This document shows, one piece after another, positions 45,509-64,000 of a stretch of DNA of 64,000 bases. Every line of letters begins with the position of its first letter. The stretch's first letter is position 1. Source of the stretch: a virus; IMG/VR virus record IMGVR_UViG_3300044643_002008, positions 13,201-77,200 of that record; one strand, given 5' to 3'. A program made the position numbers and the translations under genes. The notes beneath the pieces are model-generated. The model saw nothing but the letters and a program-made list of their open reading frames with translations, ran no database searches and was not told the origin of the DNA.

Positions 45509-47743
45509 ATGGCCTGGAATATTGGTAATAAAGACCTCGGCGGATTCGAGAAAAAGGCTGGAAACATTGGTCCAGGCGCTCCCGTCGCATATAACCCATC
45601 AATGGCTGGTCGGCCATACAAAGACTCGTGGGATATTGAGCGCGCTTACAGAGAAGGCGTTCAGAAGGTCACATGGGTAAACCGCTGTATTGACGCGATT
45701 GCTGGCAACCAGGCGAGATTGCCAATGATTATCAGAAAAGACAATTCACCAGATGGTGAAATCGTTCGCAAGAAGAACCCGATTCTTGACATTCTTAACT
45801 CGACGGCAAACCAGGGAGAAAACTCCTTTATCTTTAGATATAGGCTTTCTTCACAGCTTTTGATGTCTAGCCGTGGTGCCTTTATCGAGAAAGTTCGTGG
45901 CAGAAATGGAGAGGTAGTAGCTCTTCACCTTCTCCCACCACAACACACCTCTCCAATACCAGACCCTAAGCGCTTTGTTTCCGGATTTGAAGTGGACATG
46001 CGAAATGGTACGAAAATAATCCTTCGTCCTGAAGATGTAATTTGGGTTCGTCGTCCGCACCCCTTGGACCCATATCTGTCAATGACGCCAATGGAAGCGG
46101 CTGGTATCGCAATTGAAATTGAAAACCTTGCAAAAATTTATAACCGTAACTTCCTTCTGAATGACGGTCGCCCAGGCGGCTTGATTGTTGTTCGTGGAGA
46201 AATTGACGACGACGACAAGGACGAGCTTAGAAGTAGATTCCGCGGCAACCTTTCAAAGACAGGTGCCGTAACGGTTCTTTCCTCTGACGAGGGTGTTGAC
46301 TTCGTTGATACCGGAGCCTCACCACGAGATGCCGCGTATATACAGATGCGTCAAATCACTAAGGAAGAAATTCTCTCCGCCTTCGGTGTACCTGAATCGG
46401 TTATCGGAAACGCTGCAGGACGCACATTCTCAAATGCCGGCGAAGAAATCCGTGTTTTCTGGGTCGAGACAATGATGCCCCACTTGATGCAGATGGCCAG
46501 AGCTCTCGACGCTCTTGACCCCGAGTACTACATCGACTTTGATACCTCGCAGGTTCCCGTTCTTGTTCTGTACAAGCAGGAGCGTGAACGCTATTTGCTC
46601 GACGAGCTTCAGGCTGGATTAATTAGCCCAAATGAATACCGTGCCGGAACAGGCAAAAAAGAAATTGATTCAGACTTGATGAACGCAATGCTCGCCAACC
46701 CGAACTTGACGCCAATTGGCTACACGGACAAACCGTTTGACTCAACACAGCAACAGCAACTTGACATGATGGGTGCTCAGCAGGGTGCTCCTGGAGCTCC
46801 TCAGATGCCAGGAATGCCGCCAATGCCCGGTGCGGTGCTTGGGCAGGAATCAGGAATGATTGGGGCACCAGAGGCTCCCCAAGAGGGAATGACGGCAGCT
46901 TTAGCTCAAGAGGCACAAGTAATCCCAACAGAGGTTGGACCGGTTCAAGGATTGTCAGAGAACTTAAACGAACTTCGCTTTAAGTCCATGAACGCGGCAA
47001 TCGATGAGTGGGACACAAAAGCTGAGCAGGATTCCGATAGATGGGTCGAAATTATGGATAGAAGCCTTGAGCGCCTATTCGACCGACAGAACCGCGTAGT
47101 CATCGAGAAGGCAAATGGAGCCAAGGCCAAGAAAAGCCTTGAGTCGGGCAAACTTGAGGGAAGCGCAATATTTGATACCGACGTTTGGAATAAGCAGTTG
47201 CAGGAAGACTTGCGACCTGTAATCAAAGCGATTATCGAAGATTCCGCTCGTCTTGCTTCTCAAAAAACCGGAATGCCTGTAGAAATAGACGAAGAAGAGC
47301 TTAATGAATACATTGAGCAACAGCTAAATAGGGCCCAGCAGGTCAACAATACGACAAAAGAAGAAATTCTTGCCGCGATATTGATAGCCCAGTCATTGCA
47401 AGATGATGAAGATAGGTCGGGAATGCTTAAGGCTGCTCTTGCGGCAATATTCCTTAATCTCCTTACGAAACGCCGTCGTCTTATAGCTGAGCACGAGTCG
47501 CAATCTGCCTACAATGCCGGAACATACTTTGCTAGCCGTCTTCTTGGCTCCCCAACAAAGACATGGGTTACCAGAAAAGATGCAAAAGTTAGAGCTGAGC
47601 ACCTGTTAATGCAGGGCAAGACAGTTGATGTTGGTCAGTCTTTTGATGTCGATGGCGTCAAGATGCGATTCCCTGGAGACCCTTCTGCTCCAGTGCATTT
47701 AACAATCAACTGTAGATGCCGCCTCAAGTTTGACACACTTTAA
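45509..47743 (+). CDS. HK97-family portal protein fused to a MuF (Mu gpF-like) domain
   Basis: CIDAIA...FLLNDGRPGG...EILSAFGVP...SPNEYR portal motifs; C-terminal KTW...VRAEH...FPGDP...INCRC. Confidence 0.92.
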   Translation: MAWNIGNKDLGGFEKKAGNIGPGAPVAYNPSMAGRPYKDSWDIERAYREGVQKVTWVNRCIDAIAGNQARLPMIIRKDNSPDGEIVRKKNPILDILNSTANQGENSFIFRYRLSSQLLMSSRGAFIEKVRGRNGEVVALHLLPPQHTSPIPDPKRFVSGFEVDMRNGTKIILRPEDVIWVRRPHPLDPYLSMTPMEAAGIAIEIENLAKIYNRNFLLNDGRPGGLIVVRGEIDDDDKDELRSRFRGNLSKTGAVTVLSSDEGVDFVDTGASPRDAAYIQMRQITKEEILSAFGVPESVIGNAAGRTFSNAGEEIRVFWVETMMPHLMQMARALDALDPEYYIDFDTSQVPVLVLYKQERERYLLDELQAGLISPNEYRAGTGKKEIDSDLMNAMLANPNLTPIGYTDKPFDSTQQQQLDMMGAQQGAPGAPQMPGMPPMPGAVLGQESGMIGAPEAPQEGMTAALAQEAQVIPTEVGPVQGLSENLNELRFKSMNAAIDEWDTKAEQDSDRWVEIMDRSLERLFDRQNRVVIEKANGAKAKKSLESGKLEGSAIFDTDVWNKQLQEDLRPVIKAIIEDSARLASQKTGMPVEIDEEELNEYIEQQLNRAQQVNNTTKEEILAAILIAQSLQDDEDRSGMLKAALAAIFLNLLTKRRRLIAEHESQSAYNAGTYFASRLLGSPTKTWVTRKDAKVRAEHLLMQGKTVDVGQSFDVDGVKMRFPGDPSAPVHLTINCRCRLKFDTL

Positions 47744-47771
47744 GTAAACTCGCGGACTTTACTTAAAGTGT
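47735..47771. repeat. perfect 14-bp inverted repeat with 9-nt spacer
   Basis: acactttaagtaaa-ctcgcggac-tttacttaaagtgt. Confidence 0.85.
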
Positions 47772-47826
47772 TCCGCTAGACGACTGTTTAATTGTTTATT
47801 ATTGAACCTGTCGAAAGGTTTGCTAT

Positions 47827-50556
47827 ATGCCATCATCTTTTACAGATATGAATACGACAGAAGAAAAAGCTACAGAATACAAGGCCATTCCTGGTCAGTT
47901 CAATGTTGATGAAGCTCTTGGCATTGTTGAATGTTTCGTCGCCGGCATAGGAAACAAGGACTCCGTTGGAGATGTTTGCCTTCCTGGTGCTTTCTCTGGA
48001 AGCCTTAAGCGTCGTAAGCCACGTGTTGTATGGGGACACAACTGGAATGAGCCAATTGGCAAAGTTCTAGACATCTACGAAGTTGGTCCCAACGACCCAC
48101 GTCTACCCATGAAGATGAGACGTGCCGGTATAGGTGGTCTGTATGCTCGCGTTCAGTTCAACCTAAAATCCGAAAGAGGCAAGGAAGCATTTAATAGCGT
48201 TGTTTTCTTTGGAGAAGAGCAAGAGTGGTCAATTGGCTACAAGACTTTGGACGCTGTTTTTGACCCATCGCAACAGGCAAACATGCTTAAAGAAGTCGAG
48301 CTATACGAAGTATCTCCTGTTTTGCACGGTGCAAACCAGCTAACAGGAACGATATCCATCAAAGCTGACCAGCCATTAAAAGACCCAAAGGGTGGATTAA
48401 CCGCCGCTGGACGTAGGCACTTTAAGAATACTGAAGGCGCAGACCTCAAGCCCGGAGTTAAGGGCCCAGCAGACACCCCAGAGAAGATGCGCCGCAAAGG
48501 CTCATTCCTCACTCGCTTTTACACAAACCCTTCAGGTCCTCTTGTTGATGAAGATGGAGAGCCAACACGCCTAGCGCTTGCTGCAGTTGCATGGGGAGAG
48601 CCAGCACCAAAGAACCGTCAGGACGCGGCAGAACTCGCTGCAAAGGGCAGAAGAATGCTCGACAGATACGGTAAGTCTAAGACTAAGGCCGACCCAGCGC
48701 AGGGTGGCCAAAAGTGCCCAACTGCAACAAAAGAAGTTTCCGTCAATATAAAAAATAGACAGAAGGCAATCGATAGCGCCGGATATGGCCCACTTAACCC
48801 AAAGGAAGCAAACTCAGAGTTTTGGGACAAAAAGGCATCTCGATGGGATGTAACTGCCCAAGAAGCAAAAAAGCAGAAGTGCGGAAATTGCGCTGTGTTT
48901 ATAAAGACCTCAGCTATGGAAAAGTGCATTCAGAGCGGCCTTGCTGCCGGTGGAGAGCTTGGCGACAGCGCTTGGGACGTTATTGCTGCAGCAGACCTTG
49001 GTTACTGCGAAGCATTTGACTTCAAGTGTGCCGCGTCTCGTACTTGCGATGCATGGGTTGTTGGTGGACCGATTACTGACGAATCTTCGAACAGTCAAGA
49101 AGTTGCAGAAAAGAGTGCAATATATAAGTCGCCCGAGTACATGTCAAACACTTCAGTTGGACGTATGGCCGAACTCGCAAAAGCCTTGTCGGAAAGATTT
49201 AGCTCGCCAGTAAAAATCAGAACAGCAGACAGAGACATGGTTGTTTTCGACATCAGCAATGGTGGACAGTCAACAACAATGAGAATCACCTACTACTTTG
49301 ATGGCGAAGAATTTATGTTCGGTGAGCCACATCAGGTTCGTGCTGAAACCGTATATCTCCCGGTAAATACTCCTTCCGGAATAATGCCAGGACACGCTTT
49401 TCCAGATATGGAGGATGATGATGATTCAGGGGAATACGCTCATGGGGCTCGTGAAATGATTAGAAACGTATCTCAAAAGCCTCACGACGATTGTGGGTGT
49501 GGATGCTCTGGTGCGGGAACGTGTGGAGTTCCTGAGCCTTCTATTAGCTGGAGCAAGTTCAAGGAAAGAACCCCTGGGGCCCACCTTTTCGTAAGAGCAC
49601 TAGGTCAGGAAAAGTCAGACGCGCTAGAGCTAGTAAAGACAGTGTGCGATTATCACGGAATTGAAATGAAAGAACTGGAAGACGGAGTAGCTGTTCCGTT
49701 TATCGACTCTTTGTCTGATGACGGATATGAAGCCGTAATGACAGTCGCATCGAATATGTCAGAAGGATTTGACGCAAAGAGTGTTGGTGGGAAACTCCGC
49801 CGAGTAGGAAGAATGGCAAACAACTTTGACCGTTTCGACCCTAACGCTATTGACGCCGATGGTGACTCACAAGTTCAAGAAGGAACACGCTTCCAGCGCC
49901 CTGCGGCTCCTAGAAACATGCCAAAGGTTAAGCCAATCCAGGTTCCCCGCAGAGAAGATGTGCCACTAAAGCCTTCTGTTCCATCAACCCCAACACCAAC
50001 CCCCACAAGAGTTCCCGAAAAGCCAAGAGTTCCACAAAGAGCTGGGCGCTTGTCTGGCTCTATGAGCCTTGGTGATAATAGTCTTAGCTGGAGAAGCAGA
50101 GATTTCAAGAATCCAGGACCATCTAAGCTCGGTGAGGAAATGGACAAAATCATTGAAACCGTAGACGGTGATTCTGCATGGGACGCATGGGATGAGCTCG
50201 ATAACAAGCTCGGAGGAATGCTTGATGATATGTCACTTGGCGACCTAGAAGACGCTTTGGATGAAATGAAAGCAAAATTCCGCCAATGGGGAATTGGCAT
50301 GCAGAACGAATACAACGACGCACTAGCTGACAGGTTGATGTGGGGAGACGAAGAAGGAGTTATTAAACACCTGATGCGTTGGCAAGACATGACAAAACGG
50401 CAAGCACAAAAAGAAGCTCCGAGACTAATTGATGAATATGAAGCTGCAAGCCAAAAAGAACAAGCTTTTGAACAGGTTATCGATGCTTTGAAGTCGCGAA
50501 TTAAAGACATAGAAAAAGCAGAGGACGCATTAAGCGAGGATGATTTTTATGATTAG
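47827..50556 (+). CDS. HK97-family prohead protease with long multi-domain C-terminal extension
   Basis: DSVGD...GAF...WGHNW...PIG, WSIGY, LYEVSPVLHGAN in the first ~180 aa; ~730-aa extension. Confidence 0.92.
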   Translation: MPSSFTDMNTTEEKATEYKAIPGQFNVDEALGIVECFVAGIGNKDSVGDVCLPGAFSGSLKRRKPRVVWGHNWNEPIGKVLDIYEVGPNDPRLPMKMRRAGIGGLYARVQFNLKSERGKEAFNSVVFFGEEQEWSIGYKTLDAVFDPSQQANMLKEVELYEVSPVLHGANQLTGTISIKADQPLKDPKGGLTAAGRRHFKNTEGADLKPGVKGPADTPEKMRRKGSFLTRFYTNPSGPLVDEDGEPTRLALAAVAWGEPAPKNRQDAAELAAKGRRMLDRYGKSKTKADPAQGGQKCPTATKEVSVNIKNRQKAIDSAGYGPLNPKEANSEFWDKKASRWDVTAQEAKKQKCGNCAVFIKTSAMEKCIQSGLAAGGELGDSAWDVIAAADLGYCEAFDFKCAASRTCDAWVVGGPITDESSNSQEVAEKSAIYKSPEYMSNTSVGRMAELAKALSERFSSPVKIRTADRDMVVFDISNGGQSTTMRITYYFDGEEFMFGEPHQVRAETVYLPVNTPSGIMPGHAFPDMEDDDDSGEYAHGAREMIRNVSQKPHDDCGCGCSGAGTCGVPEPSISWSKFKERTPGAHLFVRALGQEKSDALELVKTVCDYHGIEMKELEDGVAVPFIDSLSDDGYEAVMTVASNMSEGFDAKSVGGKLRRVGRMANNFDRFDPNAIDADGDSQVQEGTRFQRPAAPRNMPKVKPIQVPRREDVPLKPSVPSTPTPTPTRVPEKPRVPQRAGRLSGSMSLGDNSLSWRSRDFKNPGPSKLGEEMDKIIETVDGDSAWDAWDELDNKLGGMLDDMSLGDLEDALDEMKAKFRQWGIGMQNEYNDALADRLMWGDEEGVIKHLMRWQDMTKRQAQKEAPRLIDEYEAASQKEQAFEQVIDALKSRIKDIEKAEDALSEDDFYD

Positions 50557-50890
50557 GTCATTTATTTCAGTAAATAAAGAAATTGATATAGATGTAAAGT
50601 CTGGCGAGTTTGTAATTAATTCAGGATTTGAAAAAATTGTACGACTTTTTGTCGAACCTGAAATAATTGATAACCAAGGTTCGGTGACTTCAGGTCAAAT
50701 ATCCATAAAGACAGCAATGCCATACATAGACGATGTTGTAGACACAATCTCTTCTGTGATGGAGTATCACGGCGTTGAGGGGTACCTTGACGGAAACACT
50801 ATTGTTATTGAAGATGCTGAATACCTAGCTGAAGACACAATCGACGCTTTGGAGACGGCAGTCAAGGGGTTGAACACCTATTTAAAATGA
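50540..50890 (+). CDS. hypothetical acidic protein
   Basis: Coupled ORF; its YHGVE segment resembles YHGIE in the protease extension. Confidence 0.6.
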   Translation: MIFMIRSFISVNKEIDIDVKSGEFVINSGFEKIVRLFVEPEIIDNQGSVTSGQISIKTAMPYIDDVVDTISSVMEYHGVEGYLDGNTIVIEDAEYLAEDTIDALETAVKGLNTYLK

Positions 50891-51126
50891 CACCGGCCGG
50901 TCAGCCATCTGGTCGGCCATCATCAAAGCCTGTTAATGGCGCATCACAGGGTAATAACTACACCCAGGGACGCTCTCCAATAGGTTATGCTACTTCAAGG
51001 CAATTAGCGAATATTCAACATAAGTATCAGTGCATAGTAACGGGCGAAAAACGCCTAGAACCGTGCGCCGGATGCACAAACACAAAAGGTTGTCTCACAA
51101 GGACACTCCAACACAAGGAGCCATAA
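50887..51126 (+). CDS. small 4-Cys protein
   Basis: ATGA and TAATG overlaps with neighbours; C-x8-CxxC-x5-C. Confidence 0.55.
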   Translation: MTPAGQPSGRPSSKPVNGASQGNNYTQGRSPIGYATSRQLANIQHKYQCIVTGEKRLEPCAGCTNTKGCLTRTLQHKEP

Positions 51127-52577
51127 TGCAAGAAAAAGCTATCGTAAAACTTGACGCTGACGGAAATGTAACGCAGTGCGCAAAAGGCGCAGGCGCGTCT
51201 GAATGCGGCTATCAACCGGGCGCAAAGGCATGTGGCAAGTGCGGAGCCATGGCTGTTATGTCCAAGGGTGACATGATGGATGAAGAAGAAGATGACGACG
51301 ACATGATGGACGAAGAAATGCCCATGATGAAGAAGAAAAAGAAGCCAATGATGGCCATGGACGATGACGACATGATGGACGAAGACGAAGAAGAAATGAA
51401 AATGTACGGCGAGTCCGAATTCATGCCTGGTATGAAGCCAAAAAAGAAAATGGGAATGGCTATGCCAGAGATGGACGAAGAAGAAATACCCATGAAGAAG
51501 GGTCGCAAGATGTCAATGGGCGTAGACGGCAAAGAGCCTATGTTCCCCATGAAGAAAAAGAAGCCAATGATGGCCATGGACGAAGAAAAAATGATGGACG
51601 AAGAGGAAGAGGAAGGCGTAGGTGCGCTTCGCAAGAAAATGCGTATGAACCGTCTCAACTCCATGGGCTTCAAGTCAGCCGACCTCGAAACAGACGAATT
51701 GTTTATGTGCCAGTTTGAGCGCAAGGTCTACCCAATGGGTGAGTCCGTGTGCGACAGCTGCCCAGGTGGATGTATGCCAGAAGGCAAGATGCCAGGAATT
51801 CTTGAAATCGAAGGAATCGCTGAGGACATGTTCTCAGGCAAGGTTCTTGACTCTGGATACTCAGACGACGCAGACCTTTTCATCGTTGACGTGGAGCGCA
51901 AAGATGGCAAGCCTATTGAGATTTTCTTTGATGGCGAAACAGCAGAAGTTATGGGTTGGCACATGCTTAACGCAGACGTTCTCAATGTTAAGTCAGGCCT
52001 GCAAAACCAGAGCTTGATTAGCTTCTCTGAAGCCGCAGAAATTGCAACCAAGAGCATCTTTGGTGATGTCGTTGCTGTTGAGCCAGACGTGTTTGAAGGC
52101 TTTGACGCATACGCGGTAGAAGTAGAGGGACTTGATGGCAAGTCTTATGACGTTTTTGTCTCTCTTGATGGTGAGCTTTTGGGTTACGACGAGTACACCC
52201 TTGATGAGGCCGAGTCAATTGAGGCAGAAGCAGCAGAGATTGCGCTTAAGCGCGCCTACACAGAAGAGTCACGCGAACAGATGGCAAAAGCTGGAAACGC
52301 TTTGCCTGACGGTTCTTTCCCAATCAAGGACGAGTCAGACTTGCGTAATGCAATTCAGGCTTACGGTCGTGCAAAGGACAAGGATGCAGCCAAGGCTCAC
52401 ATCATGAAGCGTGCACTTGACCTCGGACTAGAAGAGTTGATTCCAATGAATTGGGTTCCAGAATCCGACAAGAACAAAGCAAAGATGGAAGGCAAGTCAG
52501 AAGAAGAATCATTCTTGAATGACCTGCTTGAATTTGAAATGCTCGCAGCAGAGCAGGGAATTGAAGGAGAAAAATAA
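51126..52577 (+). CDS. Met/Lys/Asp/Glu-rich head-region protein with Cys motifs, two PepSY-like domains and a DUF6582-like domain
   Basis: AAGGAG RBS and ATG at 51126; SFSEAAEIA...GDVVAVE...YAVEV...DG...V...DGELL; ALPDGSFPI...DLRNAI...GRA. Confidence 0.7.
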   Translation: MQEKAIVKLDADGNVTQCAKGAGASECGYQPGAKACGKCGAMAVMSKGDMMDEEEDDDDMMDEEMPMMKKKKKPMMAMDDDDMMDEDEEEMKMYGESEFMPGMKPKKKMGMAMPEMDEEEIPMKKGRKMSMGVDGKEPMFPMKKKKPMMAMDEEKMMDEEEEEGVGALRKKMRMNRLNSMGFKSADLETDELFMCQFERKVYPMGESVCDSCPGGCMPEGKMPGILEIEGIAEDMFSGKVLDSGYSDDADLFIVDVERKDGKPIEIFFDGETAEVMGWHMLNADVLNVKSGLQNQSLISFSEAAEIATKSIFGDVVAVEPDVFEGFDAYAVEVEGLDGKSYDVFVSLDGELLGYDEYTLDEAESIEAEAAEIALKRAYTEESREQMAKAGNALPDGSFPIKDESDLRNAIQAYGRAKDKDAAKAHIMKRALDLGLEELIPMNWVPESDKNKAKMEGKSEEESFLNDLLEFEMLAAEQGIEGEK

Positions 52578-52885
52578 TGCAACACAAAAATGCAGCCCCA
52601 GCAGGTGTTTTTCAGCAGTCCAATAAAGCGGATTTTGCTGTTGAAAACAAAGAGGAAGTTTCGACTCCTTCTGGCATTGGTTCCGAACTGAGTGAATCAG
52701 TAAAGCCTCAGAAACCAAAAGCCAAGAAGGCAAAGGAAGAAGAGACTACTGAAGCTCCAGTAGTTGAAGTGGCTCCAGCAGCTGAAGAAGCTTCGGTAGC
52801 TCCAGTAGCTGAAGAAGCTGTTGTGGTTGAGGTCGTTCCCGAAGAACAGCCGTCGACCGAAGAAGAATCAACAGATTCAAAATAG
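52577..52885 (+). CDS. acidic low-complexity protein
   Basis: AAGGAG RBS; Glu/Ala/Val/Pro-rich. Confidence 0.65.
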   Translation: MQHKNAAPAGVFQQSNKADFAVENKEEVSTPSGIGSELSESVKPQKPKAKKAKEEETTEAPVVEVAPAAEEASVAPVAEEAVVVEVVPEEQPSTEEESTDSK

Positions 52886-52951
52886 CCTAAGTAGCACCCC
52901 GGTGCACTCCGGGCAAATAGAATTGAATGTACATAGTCGTTCATAAATGGA

Positions 52952-57808: not shown

Positions 57809-57846
57809 ATGTTAGTCTATATAAAAAGAAGATTAGACAGTTTAAA

Positions 57847-59898
57847 ATGAAGTACAGATTTGGTTCAAATATTTTAAAACAGCACAAAACTGAGACAAAA
57901 GCCTTGATGCAACAAGCTCGTTTTGACCCAAACGCAGAAGACGGCGATGGTGACGGATTCGTTCAAGAAGGAACAAGATTTAGAAGACCGGCTCCAAGGA
58001 GGGCTGTTTCTCGAGTAACCGGAAAAATAAAAGGAAGAATCTCTGGAAGCACTGGTAAATATGGAATTGCATCCAACAAAAATGTAAAAACATTTAATGG
58101 CATGGACCATCAGCATGTCCTTGAAGCTGTTGGTTCAATTATTGATTCTGTCGAAAAAAAATACGGAAAGATAACTACGGTAAAGGAAGCTGTAGATGCG
58201 TTAAAAACAGTGTTCGGAAAAGTTCAGATATTTCATATGGGCCCCAACACCGGCAGGGATGGGAAGTCGTCCCTAACCGACAGCCTCACTCAGTCTGAAT
58301 CGGCCGTCATCGCAGCGCTGCTGTTTGCCTTTAATGGCATGCCAGAGCTCAAGAAAAGAAGGCTCGTTCTTTCTCACGAGATAAGCGACGGAGCATTTTC
58401 AGGGAACGGTTCTACCGGAGTTCTTCGTAAGACAAACGCAAAAGGCGGACCTGATTTTCCAGAGTTTGGAGTTAGGGTAAACATTCCGTTTAACGAAAAT
58501 CTTGCATCAGAAATACTTGACGAAAACAATACGACCAACATAGACGGTGTTTCAAACCAGCTAACAAAAGCACTTCTTGTGCACGCTCAGTCACTCCCTC
58601 CCGGTGGAGAAAAAGACGCATATGAAAGAGCCGCGTTTGTTTCTAGCTTTATGGGTGTGACTGTGCACGAAGCAATACACGCTTTGGATTTGCCGAGAAA
58701 CGGAGACAGGCTTAATGAAGAATTGCTTAAGAGAAACCCAAACTTAACAACAGAAGAGCAAATGGAGCGAGCAAGACTTCTTGAGTCAAACAGTGAAGAA
58801 TTTTTTATAAAAAATTATTTGATTTCAAAATCTCTTCAAAACATTCAAGCCTCAGAAGCCGGGGTCGCTATTTTGATGTCACAATCCTACGAAGAAGATT
58901 CTGAAGAAGATTTTTTATCTACCGCTGCACTTCAAATATCTCAACTTGAATCAGTAAAACAAGAACTTAATCAACAGATTAAAGAAATACAAGATGCGGC
59001 CAATGACCCTAACGCTTCCTTTTTGGACATATTTACGGCAAGTGCAGTAATTCCAGATATTCAAGAAGCTATTAGCAGAATAGACCTAAGAATAAACAGA
59101 GTTGACAAAATACAAAAAGACTTGACAGAAAAAATAGCCAAAGGCAGACAACAGGATAGCTTGATAGCAAAACTGCGCGACATTGTGTATAGAGACGGTC
59201 TTAACTATCTTTTTGATATAGCTCCGCCAGGTCACCCTGGCCACAATAAAGACGTCGACATGACAGTAGACGCTTTTGGAAACGAAATTCCAACTCTTGA
59301 TATAAATGGAAAAAAAACCAAAGTAAACAATGCGACTTGGGAATTTGCAAAATCAATGCTTTTCGCTTTTAAAAAATCTCCAGATTTCCGCGTTGAAGCT
59401 GAACGTGCCGGATTCTCTTTAGCTGATGTAGAAGACGACCTGGACAATATTTACATATCAAAAGATGCAAATGGTAAAGATTTTTTTGACTTCAATAAAA
59501 TAAAAAGCAACGTGGGTCAAGACACTCTTGACAGCATGATTGAATCTATAGCTCAGCTAAATACCGTAAGCAAAATGTCTTCACACTGGCCCTCAGACAT
59601 TGAGGACAGAGAAAAATGGGAAATAGTTGACTGGATGAAAATGATATCCCAGTATGGCTCTTTGTCTCATTTTAGATACAGAAACGGCACAGACAAGCCT
59701 TCAAAAGATAATATAATATCTGTAGAAGTGACCGCAGAACTTATTACATCTCTCATATTTGGAGCAGGTGCTGCCCGAGTTCCAATGTCTCCACAGGTAC
59801 GGTCGGGTGTAATAAAGATGCTTAATTGGGTATATGCTGGCGACAGTTGGAAATCCATGCTTCCAGAAATTTCATTGAAGGCTTTAGGTATAAAATGA
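57847..59898 (+). CDS. zincin-like metallopeptidase protein with N-terminal DxDGD tag
   Basis: HEAIH at 58666-58680; C-terminal ISQY...EVTAE. Confidence 0.65.
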   Translation: MKYRFGSNILKQHKTETKALMQQARFDPNAEDGDGDGFVQEGTRFRRPAPRRAVSRVTGKIKGRISGSTGKYGIASNKNVKTFNGMDHQHVLEAVGSIIDSVEKKYGKITTVKEAVDALKTVFGKVQIFHMGPNTGRDGKSSLTDSLTQSESAVIAALLFAFNGMPELKKRRLVLSHEISDGAFSGNGSTGVLRKTNAKGGPDFPEFGVRVNIPFNENLASEILDENNTTNIDGVSNQLTKALLVHAQSLPPGGEKDAYERAAFVSSFMGVTVHEAIHALDLPRNGDRLNEELLKRNPNLTTEEQMERARLLESNSEEFFIKNYLISKSLQNIQASEAGVAILMSQSYEEDSEEDFLSTAALQISQLESVKQELNQQIKEIQDAANDPNASFLDIFTASAVIPDIQEAISRIDLRINRVDKIQKDLTEKIAKGRQQDSLIAKLRDIVYRDGLNYLFDIAPPGHPGHNKDVDMTVDAFGNEIPTLDINGKKTKVNNATWEFAKSMLFAFKKSPDFRVEAERAGFSLADVEDDLDNIYISKDANGKDFFDFNKIKSNVGQDTLDSMIESIAQLNTVSKMSSHWPSDIEDREKWEIVDWMKMISQYGSLSHFRYRNGTDKPSKDNIISVEVTAELITSLIFGAGAARVPMSPQVRSGVIKMLNWVYAGDSWKSMLPEISLKALGIK

Positions 59899-60209
59899 GT
59901 GAAAACAACAAATTAGATAATGACGATAAAGTTTTCAGTTTTTCTTTCCAGAAAAAAGCCAATCCCGAAAAAGCCGGCGAAGAACTGGTAAAATCTTCTA
60001 TAGAAATAGGAGATGATGGTTCATCGACCATTATTGACCGTTTTACTAGCATGCCATCCTCACTAGAAGAAGCAGTGAATAGCCCAAAGCTTTTTAAAAA
60101 CGTAAAAGAGTACATATCTGAACTTAGGCGTGTAGCTGGCCTTGATATGGAAATAGAAGAATTCTTAGAACTTAAAAAAGTGGAAAACAGGAAAAAAAAT
60201 GCCAAATGA
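59895..60209 (+). CDS. hypothetical protein
   Basis: ATGA overlap with the upstream stop; MSENNKL... Confidence 0.6.
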   Translation: MSENNKLDNDDKVFSFSFQKKANPEKAGEELVKSSIEIGDDGSSTIIDRFTSMPSSLEEAVNSPKLFKNVKEYISELRRVAGLDMEIEEFLELKKVENRKKNAK

Positions 60210-60843
60210 TGAATCAATAATCCCACGTGGGGCAAGAATTTCTGAAAAAGCGACTCCGATAGACGCAATTCCGCAAGAAAGAATTACCGGCGACCTCCTG
60301 AAAGGCAGAGGGCCACGAAGAGGGAATCTTGAAAGGCTGCTTCGCTACTGGCGTCCAATCATGAGAAAGCCCGGTGGATTCCGCAGATGCCGCGTCATTC
60401 TTGCCGACCATCCGGAGCTTTATCCGTTGAACAATATCTGCGCCTGGCTTCACCACGAGACAACTGGCCTGTGGCCAAACGAGGGATGCCACCACCCTGG
60501 AATGAAAAACTGTAGAAAAAAAATACGAGGCGTTGTTCGTGGCTCGGTGTGGAATGACAACGAATTCGACGACAGAATAAGAAAAATTACATCACGTGCT
60601 GGCGGGAAAAGCCTTAAGTATTCAGGGATTGATGGCGGAGAAGAGCCATTTAGTCCTGTAATAACTAACGAGGACATGGAACACGCTTTTAAAGTTCTTA
60701 GTGATTTTATAGAGATGGAACCAGATTGGGTTTCATATATTAACGACGAATCTAGCTGGGTACACCTTGGAGACGATGACGAAGACGAAGATGTCTACCA
60801 TCAGAGAGTCTCGGCACCTGGATGTACTTGCGGAAAGTGCTGA
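60199..60843 (+). CDS. head-region hypothetical protein
   Basis: GNLERLLRYW...PGGFRRC...CAWLHHETTGLWP resembles a module recalled from actinophage head regions. Confidence 0.65.
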   Translation: MPNDESIIPRGARISEKATPIDAIPQERITGDLLKGRGPRRGNLERLLRYWRPIMRKPGGFRRCRVILADHPELYPLNNICAWLHHETTGLWPNEGCHHPGMKNCRKKIRGVVRGSVWNDNEFDDRIRKITSRAGGKSLKYSGIDGGEEPFSPVITNEDMEHAFKVLSDFIEMEPDWVSYINDESSWVHLGDDDEDEDVYHQRVSAPGCTCGKC

Positions 60844-62890
60844 AGTGGAAAACGCGCAGGAACCTGAGCAAAGAAAGGCATACCGAGTAGTTCGGTACAA
60901 GTCTGCAAGCCTGGCTATTTCTCGCGACCCTATTTTCTATGGACCGTTAGTTGGAACAAACAAGTCAGTTTTGGTCGAATTTAAAGCCAAAGCACAAAGA
61001 CAGGGTGGAAGAAACAGAATAGATTACAAAGCAGGAATAACTGGCTCAGGTAGTCGTTTTCTTCAAGGAGTACAGGGCGTTGTGTCTACTGTTATTCCCG
61101 GAAACCCATCAGCGCTTCGTAGTCCTGTCCGTTCGAGACTTTACGCAGCAGCCACCCCCGGTGGCCCTCCTGGGTTGTCCGGAATTTCTCCGGCGTCAAG
61201 AGATAGAGGCTACAGATGCCCAGAGGGATATCAGTACGGTGGAAGATTTACTGACAGCAGGTTCTCGACTTGTGGACAAAAGCTATTTGAAATAGCGGGT
61301 CGCATAGGAGCTTCTATTGCGCAGATTGCGGAAGCGACACAGAGAGCAGTTGCCGGTCAGACAGTTTCAGGAAGAAACGTAAACTTTGGCGATGCGCCTG
61401 GAGAAGTGATTACCTCTCGCGCTGCCCAAATACCTAGAGTTTCTAATTTTGATTCTAAAAGATATAACGACTCATCTGAAAAAATTGTTTCTGAGATGGT
61501 TTCTTTTGCTGGTCCTGCTACCCGAATGGTAAGACGGGATGGTTTCTCCCTGACGCCGGTGGTTAGTGCCGCGGTCTTGCGTACAGTGCCAGATAACAGA
61601 GACATGGAAAGCGCAAACTACATCGTTTACGCCGACAAACCATCGTCAATCGGAACAAGCGACGAAATAGGTCTTCTTTCCAATACTGGGGTGAGAAAAC
61701 TTACCTATGTTCTTCCTGGTGGTTCTACTATTTCCCTGGAAAAAGCAAGAACACTAACCGTTGGTGAAAGAAGAAAACTCGGCAGAACCATAAGAACGCT
61801 TGAGTCCATAAAGACAGACTCGGACCCCGCAGCAAAGCTAAAGGGTTTGGCCTCCGAAATGGGAAGTGGAATAGCTTATACCGAGTCATTTAAGGTCGAG
61901 AATGCAAACGACCTAGTTGACGCCGTGATTCCAGGAACATCAAATGTCAAGCAAGTCCGACGTTGGTATTACGAAGCGTTTTTGCGTTCCGGTAAGGGCA
62001 AAATGCCCGACCGGGCTGAGGCTTCTTCGCAGTCAACAAATGCAAAAATAATTGGCAAAAAAATTGAAAACCTTCAGAACGCCATAAAGCACTTAAACAG
62101 CAACGGAAATGTCTCGGACATTAGTCCGGCAATTGTTGCGGAAGCAATCAAGAGAAGCCGGATGTATAAAAAGCGAATGCTTAAGAATGGCCTTGTTGCC
62201 TTCGACCGGGCTGATGGTCAAACATTCATAGAGATACCAGCTTCGCAAAACTTTGAGCATATTGGTGCTGCTGTAGCAGCCGATATTCAGTCATACCTTG
62301 GATTACCAACCCCTGACGTTGTTTTCACTGGCTCGGGTACAAGAAGGCCTTATCTTCTCCAGGAGTCGGTAGACGTCCTAAAGCGTGCAAAAGTCAATAG
62401 AGAGCTTAGCTCTGATAAAAATAACAGCGAAGACATGCTTCGCATAGCGGTTAGTGACTTCATTTCTGACACTCGCGACAGGGATATTTCGACGATAACT
62501 GCACTAGAAACGGGCGGCACAGACAGAGCAATATCTTCAATAAATAGAAACTCCGCACTTTCTGGTCTTGGAAGAACTGCCGCGCAGCTTAGAAGACAAC
62601 TGCAAGCAAACTCGTTCTATAGCTCAGAATACCTAAACATGATGAAGTCAAATTTTGCTAAGCGTTCAGAAGCGCAGAGACGTCTTGCTATCAAGCTTTT
62701 TGATGCCATGATTGTTCGCTTGAGAGAGTATGATATTAGTGAAATGAGTTCACGTTTATCTTTAGACGGAGAATTCACGCAGTCAGAAAAAAGCCACATA
62801 AAACTAATCGAGTCGCTAATTGAGTCGAGAATAGAAATGCTTACAAAGACTCGCAAAACATTCCTAGACATAATTGGACTTGAATCATGA
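60767..62890 (+). CDS. head-region protein with RCP tag and degenerate HipA/PI-kinase-like C-terminal domain
   Basis: RCPEGYQYGGRFT; LGLPTPDV...DFISDTRDRD; start uncertain. Confidence 0.6.
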   Translation: METMTKTKMSTIRESRHLDVLAESAEVENAQEPEQRKAYRVVRYKSASLAISRDPIFYGPLVGTNKSVLVEFKAKAQRQGGRNRIDYKAGITGSGSRFLQGVQGVVSTVIPGNPSALRSPVRSRLYAAATPGGPPGLSGISPASRDRGYRCPEGYQYGGRFTDSRFSTCGQKLFEIAGRIGASIAQIAEATQRAVAGQTVSGRNVNFGDAPGEVITSRAAQIPRVSNFDSKRYNDSSEKIVSEMVSFAGPATRMVRRDGFSLTPVVSAAVLRTVPDNRDMESANYIVYADKPSSIGTSDEIGLLSNTGVRKLTYVLPGGSTISLEKARTLTVGERRKLGRTIRTLESIKTDSDPAAKLKGLASEMGSGIAYTESFKVENANDLVDAVIPGTSNVKQVRRWYYEAFLRSGKGKMPDRAEASSQSTNAKIIGKKIENLQNAIKHLNSNGNVSDISPAIVAEAIKRSRMYKKRMLKNGLVAFDRADGQTFIEIPASQNFEHIGAAVAADIQSYLGLPTPDVVFTGSGTRRPYLLQESVDVLKRAKVNRELSSDKNNSEDMLRIAVSDFISDTRDRDISTITALETGGTDRAISSINRNSALSGLGRTAAQLRRQLQANSFYSSEYLNMMKSNFAKRSEAQRRLAIKLFDAMIVRLREYDISEMSSRLSLDGEFTQSEKSHIKLIESLIESRIEMLTKTRKTFLDIIGLES

Positions 62891-64000
62891 GCAAGATTGC
62901 ATACGTTAAAGACGTAACAGATGATTCTATTTTTGCTGTAGTTGTCGAGAAAAACAACACTTTTTTTAGCTTCGGAACTGGTCCAACTGCTTCGGCCTGG
63001 GCAAAACAATCGAACGCAAAAAAGCAGAAATTTCAGGACATTAAAGACAACCTTGATGTCATGCTCTACATTTCTCAGCCTAAAAACGCCTCGTCTGCAG
63101 AAATTGACTCCCTCTCATCTATTCTCGATATTGAGGCAGCTAAGAAAATTATCTCGATAATCGGTGGTGAAGAAAAAGAAGAAGAGATAAAAGTAAAATC
63201 CGAGCAGCCCTATTCGGACGATGCAACACAACGTCACGAACCAGAGGTCGAGGAAGATTACCTTTCTTTGTCTGACCTGCCCATGAGGTATGTCGACGTT
63301 CAGTTCAAAAGAAATGCCATTAACTACAAGACAAAGGCATTTACTCTAGATAGACAAATCTCGTCCCTGAGACTTGAAGCAAAGGGAGCAAGAGCTGTTT
63401 TTGACCCAAGCGCACGTGGCGGTGTTGGAGCATGGAGATGCCCACAGGACACTCCGTATGGAGGCCAGTTCACAAACAAGTTTGGCCGTGGTTGCACCTG
63501 GGGTGTGTCTAGAAGAATAGGTCGAGCGTTTACCGCTTTTGCCGGGAACGACCTTGGCAAAATTAGAAAGATTGGCGAAACCTTAGAAGACTTTGGAGAT
63601 TCTCGTCTTTCTACAGCGGCCGACCGTAGTGGCAGAAGACTTGACAGAAGAGCAAGAGCAGCGTCTCGTCCACCGGCGCGAGAAAGAGTTGCTGAAAGAC
63701 TGGCAACAACTTTAGAAAATGCTGCAGGTGGCGTACGTTCACGCTCGGCAGACAGAACACAGCGTCGTGCTAATAGAAGAACTGGGACCACTCCGGCACC
63801 TAAAACGCCAAAACAGTCTTCCACCCCTGTTGAAGAGTTTCTCCAAGACATTAAAAAAAGAAACTCTAAGCTGTCCTTGGAAGATGCATCTTACATTATT
63901 GACACATCGAACCCAGATTTATGGGGCGTAATCAATAGGAACGATACGCCACCAGGCGGTGACTGGAAAGACATAGTAGAGCTCTTTACTCGCGATAGTA
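62887..64000 (+). CDS. large head-region protein with RCP tag, truncated at window end
   Basis: Not in the ORF track. Manual translation from ATG 62887 (ATGA overlap) stays open to 64000: MSKIAYVKD...FDPSARGGVGAWRCPQDTPYGGQFTNKFGRGC... Confidence 0.8.
   Translation, partial: MSKIAYVKDVTDDSIFAVVVEKNNTFFSFGTGPTASAWAKQSNAKKQKFQDIKDNLDVMLYISQPKNASSAEIDSLSSILDIEAAKKIISIIGGEEKEEEIKVKSEQPYSDDATQRHEPEVEEDYLSLSDLPMRYVDVQFKRNAINYKTKAFTLDRQISSLRLEAKGARAVFDPSARGGVGAWRCPQDTPYGGQFTNKFGRGCTWGVSRRIGRAFTAFAGNDLGKIRKIGETLEDFGDSRLSTAADRSGRRLDRRARAASRPPARERVAERLATTLENAAGGVRSRSADRTQRRANRRTGTTPAPKTPKQSSTPVEEFLQDIKKRNSKLSLEDASYIIDTSNPDLWGVINRNDTPPGGDWKDIVELFTRDS

Follow-up and report, generated by a model that had tools for sequence, protein, structure and literature searches.

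The window analysed here is a 64,000-nt stretch of a 77-kb contig from an uncultured lake phage with, judged by gene content, an HK97-type head module, and its last part holds a run of plus-strand head genes (Table 1). As the sequence-only reading had proposed, a gene for a portal fused to a MuF-like domain is followed by a prohead protease gene, and Pfam and PHROG matches bear this out. Residues 57-379 of the portal protein match Phage_portal (1.2e-53), the protein matches PHROG 2662 portal (1.6e-103) and PHROG 2468 head morphogenesis (2e-30), and the Phage_Mu_F match of residues 654-739 (4e-06, 28 bits) lies just below the Pfam cut-off of 29.6. The closest cultured portals, from actinophages, share 40-44% identity.

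Table 1. Genes, domains and short motifs at the head locus, in window coordinates.
Feature	Position	Strand	Basis
Portal fused to MuF-like head-morphogenesis domain, 744 aa	45509..47743	+	Pfam, PHROG
Prohead protease fusion, 909 aa	47827..50556	+	Pfam, AlphaFold2, relatives
SVGRM, conserved G-R-M site, residues 443-447 of protease fusion	49153..49167	+	alignment
Candidate addressing tag in protease fusion, basic stretch + RFDPNAIDADGDSQVQEGTRFQRPA, residues 655-693	49789..49905	+	tblastn
FDPNAxDxDGD...RPA tag, copy 1	49834-49905	+	pattern, protease fusion
Junction motif RLSGSM, residues 741-746 of protease fusion	50047..50064	+	pattern
116-aa ORF, poorly conserved (4-5 loci)	50540..50890	+	ORF list
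Conserved 515-aa protein	51030..52577	+	synteny
102-aa acidic/Pro-rich ORF, not conserved	52577..52885	+	ORF list
Putative cargo polyprotein, RCP family A, 1618 aa, GTG start 52952	52952..57808	+	motifs, relatives
RCP tag 1, RCPAGTPAANQFTDLQMSNC, residues 154-173 of 1618-aa protein	53411..53470	+	pattern
Zincin metallopeptidase-like domain, residues 211-556	53582..54619	+	alignment, fold
Junction pair KLTGSM (755-760) and KVSGSM (767-772, from 55250), 12 residues apart	55214..55267	+	pattern
ART-like module, residues 773-1042	55268..56077	+	ESM Atlas neighbours
Junction motif KLSGSM, residues 1043-1048 of 1618-aa protein	56078..56095	+	pattern
Module 3, residues 1049-1618 of family A protein	56096..57805	+	tblastn
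Putative 683-aa cargo protein: N-terminal tag, junction motif, zincin-like body	57847..59898	+	motifs
FDPNAxDxDGD...RPA tag, copy 2, FDPNAEDGDGDGFVQEGTRFRRPA, residues 26-49 of 683-aa protein	57922..57993	+	pattern, tblastn
Junction motif RISGST, residues 64-69 of 683-aa protein	58036..58053	+	pattern
214-aa Cys/His-rich protein between RCP families A and B	60199..60843	+	synteny
RCP family B protein, 707 aa, TTG start 60767	60767..62890	+	RCP motif
RCP tag 2, in RCP family B protein	61214-61273	+	pattern
RCP family C protein, first 371 aa	62887..64000	+	RCP motif; sibling contig
RCP tag 3, in RCP family C protein	63436-63495	+	pattern

The protease is a fusion in which Pfam recognises Peptidase_S78 (1.1e-10, residues 34-175) and DUF6321 (1.5e-28, 185-256), followed by a variable disordered linker, a conserved block (about 443-645), a tag, a Pro-rich linker, a junction motif and a variable C-terminal helical module (765-906). 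AlphaFold2 with 39 sequences predicts folded segments at residues 25-165, 217-287, 445-506, 570-645 and 765-906, and pLDDT below 50 at 166-216, 288-444, 507-569 and 646-764. Conservation across 37-83 loci covers residues 1-300 and 417-750, and the sequence beyond 750 is variable. The second folded block opens with SVGRM, at the predicted boundary of disorder (370-444) and a helix (442-458); 39 aligned fusions give the consensus NPxxGRMGxLAxAL, in which G445 is nearly invariant. Some relatives have cargo joined directly to the protease, and the fusion of genome G001 reaches 3190 aa with about eight junction sites.

Large ORFs occupy more than 13 kb 3' of the protease gene, and Pfam finds no capsid gene inside the window. 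The sequence-only reading had noted both correctly for the window, and the capsid gene is missing only because the window ends before it: a sibling contig carries a PF05065 HK97-type capsid gene about 12.4 kb past base 64000 and about 28.6 kb from the protease start. This contig is 99.0-99.8% identical to the window across most of an overlap of about 20 kb, and 93.5% identical across 0.9 kb in the protease gene. The window is best explained as covering the first two-fifths of a cargo island of about 26 kb between the prohead protease and major capsid genes, and the motif grammar described below persists as far as the capsid gene and slightly beyond. At least 220 related IMG/VR contigs have this layout, with protease-to-capsid gaps of 17-45 kb among relatives and a largest single protein of 5345 aa. 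The island products are strings of zincin, ADP-ribosyltransferase-like, NUDIX, zeta-toxin-like and helix-turn-helix-repeat modules, with domain matches to NUDIX (2.4e-17) and Zeta_toxin (4.6e-09) and, in relatives, to RNase_T, PI3_PI4_kinase, 2H and ATLF; this repertoire is typical of polyvalent proteins (compared with PMC5512222).

The 116-aa ORF directly after the protease matches no family in Pfam or PHROG. The 515-aa protein has a Cys-rich start, a Met/Asp/Glu-rich low-complexity region and a folded-looking C-terminal half; it is syntenic 3' of the protease in every relative examined (481-520 aa), is conserved in 21-58 loci, and its family search yielded nothing beyond an insignificant PepSY hint (E 1.5). 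The family A protein (its ESM Atlas record begins at residue 3) comprises an RCP leader with a zincin (1-755), an ART-like module (770-1043) and module 3 (1049-1618). Its N-terminal 250 residues are conserved in up to 42 loci and its C-terminal parts are replaced (lengths 761-2470 aa). The 214-aa protein keeps its size and place in relatives and is conserved in 24-34 loci. The family C protein, cut by the window edge, is 1519 aa long in the sibling contig.

Two zincins had been predicted and both are supported. Among 28 members of family A, the HEFFH (54128-54142) keeps H393 and H397 always or almost always and E394 almost always, and the domain is modelled with pLDDT 70-93. Its top structural match in VIA-align is anthrax lethal factor (1yqy_A, Z 9.2, 217 aligned, rmsd 6.0), followed by a putative metal hydrolase (Z 6.6) and Pro-Pro endopeptidases (Z 6.1, 6.0), and Pfam ATLF is matched in one RCP relative. 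In the 683-aa protein, the HExxH (H274, E275, H278; 58666-58680) is invariant in four homologues. The two ART-like domains of the earlier reading fared unequally. Residues 773-1042 carry YRG, LSAFT and FEVV motifs, and PF03496 ADPrib_exo_Tox occurs in 15 of the 30 nearest ESM Atlas clusters (best score 0.94); the module's own sequence gives no Pfam match. We treat the ADP-ribosyltransferase-like assignment as a supported lead. Module 3, which had been read as ART-like or DUF3626-like, has homologous segments within other proteins in 10 loci, and neither it nor five homologues match Pfam at E<=1; this second ART-like call is unsupported. For the claimed kinase-like domain, PI3_PI4_kinase matches occur in 5 of 24 RCP-bearing relatives, while the nearest Atlas clusters of the family B protein itself (its record begins at residue 27, i.e. 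60845) are unnamed and HipA_2 does not appear before rank 28; its C-terminal part is possibly, and only weakly, kinase-like.

Three short motifs recur across these otherwise different proteins, each far above the expectation from 1000 shuffles. The RCP-x8-FT-x6-C motif occurs three times (0 expected), the FDPNA/DxDxDG tag twice (0.001 expected) and the strict junction motif [KR][LVI][ST]GS[MT] five times in three proteins (0.04 expected); all three motifs had been named in the sequence-only reading. No enrichment is seen for its further K↓[A/S/G] site ([LIVFYM]-E-x-K-[ASG]; 8 observed, 4.6 expected, shuffle 99th percentile 10). In 20 sequences drawn from three paralogous families, the R, C, P, F, T and second C of the RCP motif never vary, and the families resemble one another essentially only there (32-57 columns in hhalign); a profile search retrieves 551 cluster representatives at E<=1e-3, and RCP tag 1 is modelled at pLDDT about 55. 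The second tag, about 40 aa long, is common to the protease fusion, where it is predicted disordered, and four cargo N-termini (683, 1471, 709 and 1171 aa; 45-76% identity by tblastn). All five of these tags are followed by a junction motif 24-73 residues on (33 residues beyond the tag core in the 683-aa protein). This regular succession is limited to the FDPNA-type tag; among the three RCP proteins the 1618-aa one alone contains junction motifs, and the 707- and 1519-aa proteins contain none.

The junction motifs sit at module borders and in linkers. In the protease fusion, pLDDT stays below 50 throughout the segment that holds the tag and RLSGSM, the conserved block stops at RLSGSM in about 10 loci, and the folded C-terminal module begins about 20 residues downstream. 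After a VPQR(A) stretch this phage has GRLSGSM and G001 has SSGPVGRM; the alignment consensus PxVPxxxxGxM agrees with these sites, although a direct column print left them unaligned. Matches of tblastn to relatives start or stop at junction motifs (family A limits 1-760, 1-1046 and 1029/1036-1557/1607), and modules are gained, lost or exchanged exactly there. In relative L006, module 1 stops at the KLTGSM/KVSGSM pair, the ART-like module is absent and a single junction motif links modules 1 and 3. At KLSGSM, the match to L004 runs up to residue 1046, and those to L006 and L074 start at 1036 and 1029; in L004, residues 22-683 of the 683-aa protein are fused behind family A residues 1-1046. Spacing between sites is domain-sized, mostly 126-752 aa, and the flanks are hydrophobic-poor (0.164 vs 0.28).

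The form of the junction peptide in this phage is x-[ILV]-[ST]-G-[SA]-[MI] (LSGSM, ITGSM, ISGAM). One LSGSMS also occurs beyond the head module, in a tape-measure-like protein, at about chance level for the broad pattern. Other lineages have ISGRMG, GPVGxM, LTGAM, VSGKM, R[LF]SSG, RTGRAT or REGRAS, and the sites in the protease fusion agree with those in the downstream cargo of the same genome; the peptide thus changes in step across one genome's sites yet differs by lineage. The basic first residue of the motif is peculiar to this lineage. The scissile bond cannot be placed: the residue preceding the core is basic in no more than about 10 of the 15 sites of this phage and seldom so in G003.

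The junction, RCP and tag motifs of the 77-kb contig all lie in plus-strand head genes, and the strict patterns are absent from all its other six-frame ORFs and from the 18,012 aa of its other proteins. In 81 related loci the motifs match 60, 20 and 13 times on the head strand and never on the opposite one. In the complete 137.8-kb genome G003, all 14 I-S-G-R-M-encoding DNA matches (32,667-60,376) fall within the interval from the protease (26,255) to the capsid gene (about 61,070), and a reversed-pattern control gave 0; the complete 174-kb genome G001 has 13 G-P-[VI]-G-x-M matches, 12 of them in the interval bounded by its capsid gene and protease. Codon use varies among the ISGRM sites of G003, and therefore selection appears to act on the peptide and not on a DNA repeat. 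We consider it about an even chance that these are polyvalent proteins packaged as head cargo, with the tags as their address and cleavage at the junction motifs by the prohead protease. The large proteins might instead be cytoplasmic or externally displayed and merely encoded in a late operon, their motifs being inherited linkers and leaders spread by duplication and shuffling without an addressing or processing role. In favour of this, packaging is predicted from sequence, AlphaFold confidence is low for the RCP and tag regions, and recombinational module shuffling alone could preserve junction sequences. This alternative is nevertheless very unlikely given the differing codons, the concerted change at non-homologous sites within one genome, the confinement between protease and capsid genes, the tag shared with the protease fusion and the cargo-protease fusions of relatives.

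For packaged and processed cargo, the capsid protein offers a comparison. It has an N-terminal coiled-coil delta-like domain and a Phage_capsid match in Pfam, and its delta junction reads K↓[ST][LIV]G-x-[MAL]-F in 58 distinct relatives. The form in this phage, K-S-L-G-Q-M-F, is related in sequence to the cargo junction peptide and resembles the HK97 capsid junction, K↓SLGS. It stays [ST][LIV]G-x-[MAL] even where the cargo motif is REGRAS, and covariation of the two is weak and confounded by descent. A capsid junction that does not track the cargo motif would also fit cutting by the lethal-factor/Pro-Pro-endopeptidase-like zincin of family A or by further zincins among the modules, whether inside the head or once injected, with the prohead protease processing only the capsid protein. 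The conserved HExxH in the 28 aligned family A members, the match to zincin endopeptidase folds, and further HExxH modules in the 683- and 1171-aa proteins agree with this, as does the predicted release of modules through autoproteolysis by embedded peptidases (PMC5512222). We regard it as unlikely: the zincin is equally conserved in a clade poor in junction motifs, junction motifs also stand in the protease fusion itself, at a position just past the conserved core that the lineages share, and the zincins may be mere effectors.

The peptides could also remain uncut and, perhaps together with the tags, serve as docking peptides on the inner face of the HK97-fold shell, pinning giant cargo at many points as in encapsulins. 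Family-1 encapsulins address cargo into such a shell with short Gly-Ser-hydrophobic peptides in flexible linkers (GSLxIGSLK, LTVGSLRR, TVGSLIQ; PMC10960027, PMC8229669), and [ILV]-[ST]-G-S-[MIL], or G-P-V-G-S-[ML] in G001, resembles their [TI]-[VI]-G-S-L and likewise lies in flexible linkers. The mature capsid N-arm opens with a similar peptide, and concerted lineage-specific change is compatible with any single binding partner. We find docking quite unlikely, however, since encapsulin peptides are terminal, usually single and uncleaved, whereas the motifs here are internal, at module borders and up to about eight per protein; the likeness spans only 4-5 residues, and the REGRAS, RTGRAT and R[LF]SSG lineages do not share it.

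The proposed cargo system shares features with several known ones. Like the polyvalent proteins of phages and conjugative elements (Iyer, Burroughs, Anand, de Souza and Aravind 2017, PMC5512222), the island products are huge proteins in which enzymatic and DNA-binding domains of unrelated kinds are strung together (zincin, ART, NUDIX, 2H, kinases); polyvalent genes likewise lie beside portal/MuF in portal-terminase phages, with predicted packaging and delivery with DNA, and both peptidase processing and an analogy to RNA-virus polyproteins were put forward for them. What differs here is the defined lineage-specific junction peptide, the two shared addressing elements, the 17-45-kb island between protease and capsid gene, the cargo-protease fusions, and a zincin whose resemblance to lethal factor and Pro-Pro endopeptidases suggests that it differs from the MPTase described there. 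HK97 protease is reported to be encapsidated via its C-terminal part (Duda, Oh and Hendrix 2013, cited in PMC12749128), and the protease here would similarly require its own address for procapsid entry. The S78 protease, the Phage_capsid protein with its delta-like domain and the K↓S-L-G junction are shared with HK97; in HK97 the portal, protease and capsid genes are adjacent, whereas here 26 kb of putative cargo part protease from capsid, and the protease is extended by DUF6321, another conserved block, the tag and variable cargo. Prohead protease sites of T4 and phiKZ-like phages have glutamate at P1. In T4 (internal proteins, Alt) and the phiKZ-like SPN3US, head-internal or ejection proteins bear N-terminal propeptides able to direct them to the prohead core and are cleaved by the prohead protease; the SPN3US protease consensus occurs at 14 sites in 9 substrates, and cutting at 13 of these 14 sites removes N-terminal propeptides (PMC10052503, PMC5694885). 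A short consensus recurring in many head proteins is common to these phages and ours, where it is predicted as a cleavage site; ours differs in its S78/HK97-type protease, in a G-x-M core instead of P1 glutamate (PMC10052503), and in mostly internal sites between polyprotein modules, recognised from sequence. Among cultured phages, those with the closest portals (40-44% identity) also have giant or toxin-type genes directly 3' of portal/portal-MuF and ahead of the capsid gene, namely Streptomyces phage Gilgamesh gene 48 (4624 aa) and, in Gordonia phage GMA6, an ART gene and a 1009-aa ORF. All three motifs are absent from these large ORFs, which also lack any recurrent junction peptide, and no cultured relatives carrying the motifs were found.

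The sequence-only reading thus survives in its general idea, a code of modular peptides that would mark head-associated cargo enzymes, and not in its K↓[A/S/G] site, basic first residue or missing capsid gene; confinement, linker and module-border sites and the shared tag speak for it, and it is partly supported because several independent in-silico tests able to contradict it did not. Weighing against it are the two RCP proteins that lack a junction motif, a G004-type clade with the island present, few junction motifs and a protease without the tag, and the conserved island zincin as an alternative processing enzyme. The cargo would be recruited into the assembling procapsid by either of two short addressing elements, a basic + DxDxDG tag of about 40 residues or a leader with the invariant R-C-P-x8-F-T-x6-C. 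As the protease fusion also bears the former tag, cargo would share the protease's route into the procapsid. Within it, the modules would be separated at the junction peptides of disordered linkers, most likely by the S78 prohead protease, and the freed modules might then be delivered along with the phage DNA.

The prohead protease and capsid genes of this uncultured lake phage are separated by about 26 kb, and the sequences of the large proteins encoded between them are best read as those of a putative head-cargo system of the polyvalent-protein kind (PMC5512222). The genes from the portal fusion to the end of the window form a single co-directional run, in which the protease fusion matched PF04586 (Peptidase_S78; 1.1e-10, 42.3 bits, cut-off 21 bits) as well as PHROG 80. 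The window ends where the incomplete 77.2-kb contig ends, and a sibling contig, overlapping it by about 20 kb (99.0-99.8% identical over most of this length, 93.5% over 0.9 kb in the protease gene), completes the last, open ORF to 1519 aa. The sequence-only reading had found no capsid gene, but an HK97-type one is present in the sibling contig beyond the window edge, starting about 28.6 kb past the protease start and about 12.4 kb beyond base 64000. Just upstream of it, in the slot where a scaffold gene would be expected, lies a Zeta_toxin-like kinase gene with the Walker A sequence GASASMKST. The cargo grammar fills the gap between protease and capsid and continues just past the capsid gene, where a tagged 1171-aa protein with four junction motifs separating its modules is encoded; the capsid gene is therefore no strict border of the island.

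Features of the head module, its continuation in the sibling contig (L092) and associated side observations
Feature	Location	Strand	Length (aa)	Description
Tape-measure-like ORF	27747-31940	minus	1397	Coiled-coil start, then hydrophobic segments; LSGSMS at 31785-31802 (residues 47-52)
Large terminase	43911-45215	minus		Immediately upstream of gene run
Gene run	45509 to window end	plus		Single co-directional run
Portal + MuF-like fusion		plus	744	Head of gene run
Protease fusion	47827-50556	plus	909	S78 (HK97-type) prohead protease, then DUF6321, at N-terminus
Protease fusion linker	48695-49102	plus		Indel-rich
ORF		plus	116	
ORF	51030-52577	plus	515	
ORF		plus	102	
RCP family A		plus	1618	
ORF		plus	683	
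ORF		plus	127	
Cys/His-rich ORF	60199-60843	plus	214	
RCP family B		plus	707	
RCP family C, start		plus	371 so far	RCP-bearing; open at window end
RCP family C linker	L003:11900-12300			Residues about 640-760 of the 1519-aa protein
Sibling contig, after the 1519-aa protein			1471	Tag; NUDIX (2.4e-17); two strict junction motifs and a looser one after the tag
Sibling contig, next			210	
Sibling contig, next			709	Tag; three junction motifs
Sibling contig, next	L092:9370-10350	minus	326	Zeta_toxin-like P-loop kinase (Pfam, 4.6e-09)
Sibling contig, next			443	HK97-type capsid protein (PF05065, 3.3e-46); about 96-residue coiled-coil-like, delta-like N-terminal part
Sibling contig, after capsid gene			282	
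Sibling contig, next	L092:3132-6647	minus	1171	Tag; about seven sigma-70 region-4-like HTH repeats (HTH_40, 6.8e-19), ART-like part, HExxH module
Streptomyces phage Gilgamesh giant ORF	MN234216.1 31978-45852		4624	Two genes past a related portal-MuF fusion

Three short peptide elements occur in the head module where the sequence-only reading had placed them, far above shuffle expectation (1000 shuffles). The junction motif [KR][LVI][ST]GS[MT] has five sites in three proteins (expected 0.04 in 1000 residue shuffles of the head proteins), the RCP element RCP-x8-FT-x6-C is found in the 1618-, 707- and 371+-aa proteins (expected 0 in 1000 shuffles), and the tag FDPNAxDxDGD...RPA lies at residues 670-693 of the protease fusion and at the N-terminus of the 683-aa protein (expected 0.001). 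The strict patterns of all three had no match in the other six-frame ORFs of the 77-kb contig. With a broad junction pattern, the LSGSMS of the tape-measure-like protein was the only match outside the head module, where about one is expected by chance. A proposed K|[A/S/G] site, searched as [LIVFYM]-E-x-K-[ASG], was not enriched (8 observed vs 4.6 expected), and as a second code it was discarded, showing no enrichment over shuffles in five head modules. The original address-and-cleave interpretation is partly supported in silico. Its motifs are real and belong to a system much larger than the window shows.

Unbiased k-mer enrichment revealed that each lineage possesses its own junction version. 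It reads x-[ILVP]-[ST]-G-[SA]-[MIL] in the window phage, I-S-G-R-M-G in the complete 138-kb relative G003 (ISGRM, 13 observed vs 0.009 expected), G-P-[VI]-G-x-M in the complete 174-kb relative G001, and L-T-G-A-M, V-S-G-K-M, R-[LF]-S-S-G, R-T-G-R-A-T or R-E-G-R-A-S in further lineages; the basic first residue originally ascribed to the motif is not general and is restricted to the lineage of the window phage. Within one genome, the protease fusion and unrelated cargo encoded downstream share one version; behind VPQR(A) in the protease fusion, the window phage has GRLSGSM where G001 has SSGPVGRM. Matches at the DNA level were confined to the island in both complete genomes (14/14 and 12/13 inside), with zero control matches and varied codons. 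Moreover, the motif marks module borders: the 1618-aa protein consists of modules 1 (residues 1-755), 2 (770-1043) and 3 (1049-1618), and where relatives match it, the matches begin or stop at the motif. The orthologue in the related locus L006 lacks module 2 and has one motif joining modules 1 and 3, and in locus L004 a homologue of the 683-aa protein takes the place of module 3. Hydrophobic residues are depleted in the motif flanks, and the stretches that separate sites have the size of domains. In its AlphaFold2 model, the protease fusion has a low-confidence stretch (646-764) that takes in the tag, a Pro-rich linker and RLSGSM, with a confident helical module about 20 residues past RLSGSM; a second conserved G-R-M site, SVGRM (443-447), lies exactly at the start of another folded block. 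Island confinement, versions changing in step, module borders, linker-like flanks and AlphaFold2 context argue that the junction motif is functional. No junction motif was found in the complete 1519-aa RCP family C protein, which has a Pro/Ala/Thr-rich linker of about 120 residues.

Length changes concentrate in the disordered linker of the protease fusion, which is indel-rich where the sibling is 99% identical on either side (909 vs 848 aa). The protease gene contains no slippery A-run. In the 3190-aa protease fusion of G001 (IMGVR_UViG_3300032308_002246, residues about 640-1090) the linkers contain tandem peptide repeats, with VPQR/EPER units and six ERPR[IL]R units.

The tag forms a unit of about 40 residues that runs from a basic stretch through the DxDxDG core to VQExTxFERPA. 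It is common to four cargo N-termini and the interior of the protease fusion (copies of 24-40 aa, 45-76% identical), and in the window phage each copy has a junction motif 24-73 residues behind it. Other lineages carry the variant F-DGDGDG-FRTGxDGRDNxPY, and one clade has no tag. The DxDxDG tag resembles Excalibur/EF-hand-like elements, an identity that was rejected: the tag had no Pfam hit and lies in a region predicted to be disordered. The RCP element spans 20 residues, six of them invariant, within three leader regions that are otherwise hardly related. Homology of the RCP families beyond the motif was not upheld by hhalign, which supports only 32-57 columns (42% probability for B vs C), so that RCP is a short shared element and not a shared domain. 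An RCP profile retrieved 551 cluster representatives, 164 of them at E<=1e-10, with lengths of 144-4629 aa and the motif mostly within the first 40-300 residues. Both elements have low AlphaFold confidence, as expected for peptides that need a partner.

No significant family was assigned by Pfam or PHROGs to the large cargo proteins in the window, even with hits admitted up to E<=5. Enzymatic modules are predicted in several of them. Residues 211-556 of the 1618-aa protein have a confident fold, an HExxH that is invariant or nearly so in 28 homologues, and zincins or metal hydrolases as the top six structural matches in VIA-align (Z 9.2 down to 6.0). The best of these were anthrax lethal factor (Z 9.2) and Pro-Pro endopeptidases, at Z scores only modestly above the usual background, and we classify the modelled domain as zincin metallopeptidase-like, of the lethal factor/Pro-Pro endopeptidase type. 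A Foldseek search of the PDB with the model of residues 1-760 had no match at E<=0.001, and phmmer against PDB sequences gave nothing useful for the 1618- and 683-aa proteins. HExxH is also invariant in the 683-aa protein, so both zincins of the sequence-only reading show a conserved motif, the one in the 1618-aa protein being recovered by fold as well. Its two ART-like domains fared unequally. Residues 773-1042 of the 1618-aa protein have ESM Atlas neighbours carrying PF03496 (ADPrib_exo_Tox; 15/30, best 0.94), and YRG, LSAFT and FEVV, to be compared with the R-S-E catalytic pattern of that family, are visible in the sequence; with no Pfam hit of its own, this region is called ART-like from language-model neighbours only. 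Module 3 found no support as a second ART-like or DUF3626-like domain, as neither it nor five homologues had a Pfam match; a word-indexed homologue search with residues 767-1618 returned one match. Support for a kinase-like call on the 707-aa protein was weak. Across 24 RCP-bearing giants, Pfam identified RNase_T, PI3_PI4_kinase, 2H phosphoesterase, NUDIX and lethal-factor-type zincin domains.

In the proposed mechanism, cargo would enter the procapsid through the DxDxDG tag, which it has in common with the protease, and the RCP leader might offer a second entry route. Cargo that has entered would then be split at the junction motif into its modules. Like its HK97 counterpart, the protease too has to get into the procapsid (Duda et al. 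2013, cited in PMC12749128). Such cutting logic for head proteins was shown by mass spectrometry for T4 and SPN3US (PMC10052503). The capsid proteins of 58 relatives share a maturation junction K|[ST][LIV]G-x-[MAL]-F, and the G-x-M core common to it and the cargo motif points to the S78 protease as the candidate enzyme, although the scissile bond cannot be placed. Across lineages, the capsid junction (G-x-M, G-x-A or G-x-L) does not clearly follow the cargo motif: among the 58 distinct relatives, 30/46 cargo sites have M where the capsid has M, a trend dominated by a few lineages and orthologous sites, and three lineages are discordant. Alternatively, the motif might be cut by the conserved zincin instead of the S78 protease. 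The junction peptides might also be uncleaved docking peptides of the encapsulin type (PMC10960027). Family-1 encapsulin peptides are terminal and of the GSLxIGSLK or LTVGSL type, whereas those found here are internal and multiple and resemble them over 4-5 residues only. In a third rival reading, the large proteins would have no cargo role at all. That junction peptide and tag are true cargo-loading peptides docking on the inner face of the HK97-fold shell, like encapsulin targeting peptides and with or without later cleavage, seems to us improbable.

As proposed, the system would belong with two known kinds, the polyvalent proteins and the head proteins that a protease processes. Those of the first kind (Iyer et al. 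2017) combine unrelated domains in one chain, as do the 1618-aa protein (zincin fold, ART-like module and a further module), the 1471-aa protein of the sibling with NUDIX, and the 1171-aa protein with HTH repeats, ART-like part and HExxH. They are also encoded beside virion genes for portal-terminase packaging, here portal-MuF, S78 protease, large terminase and a downstream capsid gene. Their packaging in the capsid and delivery into the host would be predicted for the proteins here as well. The counterpart of the T4/phiKZ targeting propeptide would be the 24-40-aa tag at four cargo N-termini and in the protease fusion, with a putative targeting role. The counterpart of the T4/phiKZ cleavage consensus would be a recurrent, island-confined motif at module borders, a candidate cleavage site. 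It is unlike the Glu-P1 motifs in T4 and SPN3US (PMC10052503), and the protease is a Peptidase_S78 of the HK97 type, not of the T4 gp21/phiKZ gp175 type. The S78 protease and the Phage_capsid protein with its N-terminal delta-like domain (the latter in the sibling contig, beyond the window) resemble the HK97 head module, but portal, protease and capsid genes are not adjacent here. Unlike MuF polymorphic toxins and MuF-anchored polyvalent proteins, where a variable effector follows MuF in the same chain, the 744-aa fusion ends with its MuF-like part (residues about 497-741) and has no further domain behind it.

Searches of IMG/VR retrieved at least 220 related loci with the protease fusion and 170 with the capsid protein. 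Their shared gene order is portal-MuF, protease fusion (729-3190 aa), a protein of about 500 aa, RCP family A (761-2470 aa), small ORFs, RCP family B, and RCP family C or other giants. Among five relatives, which include two complete genomes with terminal repeats (138 and 174 kb), the capsid gene lies 17-45 kb from the protease start, and single ORFs are up to 5345 aa long. The 515-aa protein that follows the protease is retained in all relatives, with its size and position, and is therefore likely a core head-assembly component. Its sequence combines a long low-complexity region of Met/Asp/Glu/Lys with a Cys-x-x-C pair, two weakly PepSY-like repeats (E 1.5, not significant) and, C-terminally, a DGSFPI...DLRNAI...GRA motif. 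Most relatives also retain the 214-aa Cys/His-rich protein, at the same size and place between families A and B of the RCP proteins; it is possibly a metal-binding partner of these proteins. A sequencing-run look-up listed lake-water metagenomes from several studies as DNA holders and listed no RNA holders. The nearest cultured portals belong to actinophages (40-44% identity), where giant or toxin genes also follow the portal; the portal may thus point to an actinobacterial host. A 54-aa tag-plus-junction peptide had no tblastn match in 50,697 cultured phage records, and neither Streptomyces phage Gilgamesh gene 48, the 4624-aa ORF, nor the head region of Gordonia phage GMA6 contained any of the three motifs, recurrent k-mers or a junction peptide that recurs.

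If this reading holds, the polyvalent-protein literature's prediction that giants are processed into separate active pieces becomes testable, and metagenomic phages could be screened for packaged effectors by a sequence rule, with the RCP profile alone already covering 551 cluster representatives. It would also provide candidates for peptide tags and cleavage sites with which foreign proteins could be loaded into capsids of the HK97 type. Were the docking reading true, it would be a phage-side counterpart of encapsulin cargo loading, with portable peptides by which a phage capsid could be filled with proteins of choice. For the phages themselves, processed head cargo would mean that a common uncultured lake-phage group devotes as much as a quarter of the genome (45 of 174 kb in one that is complete) to enzymes shipped in the head. 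Their organization would be like that of RNA-virus and retrovirus polyproteins, with short-peptide addresses and perhaps cuts at a junction code co-evolving in each lineage, and would offer a natural catalogue of modules for host takeover and counter-defence, their limits already set by the phage itself.
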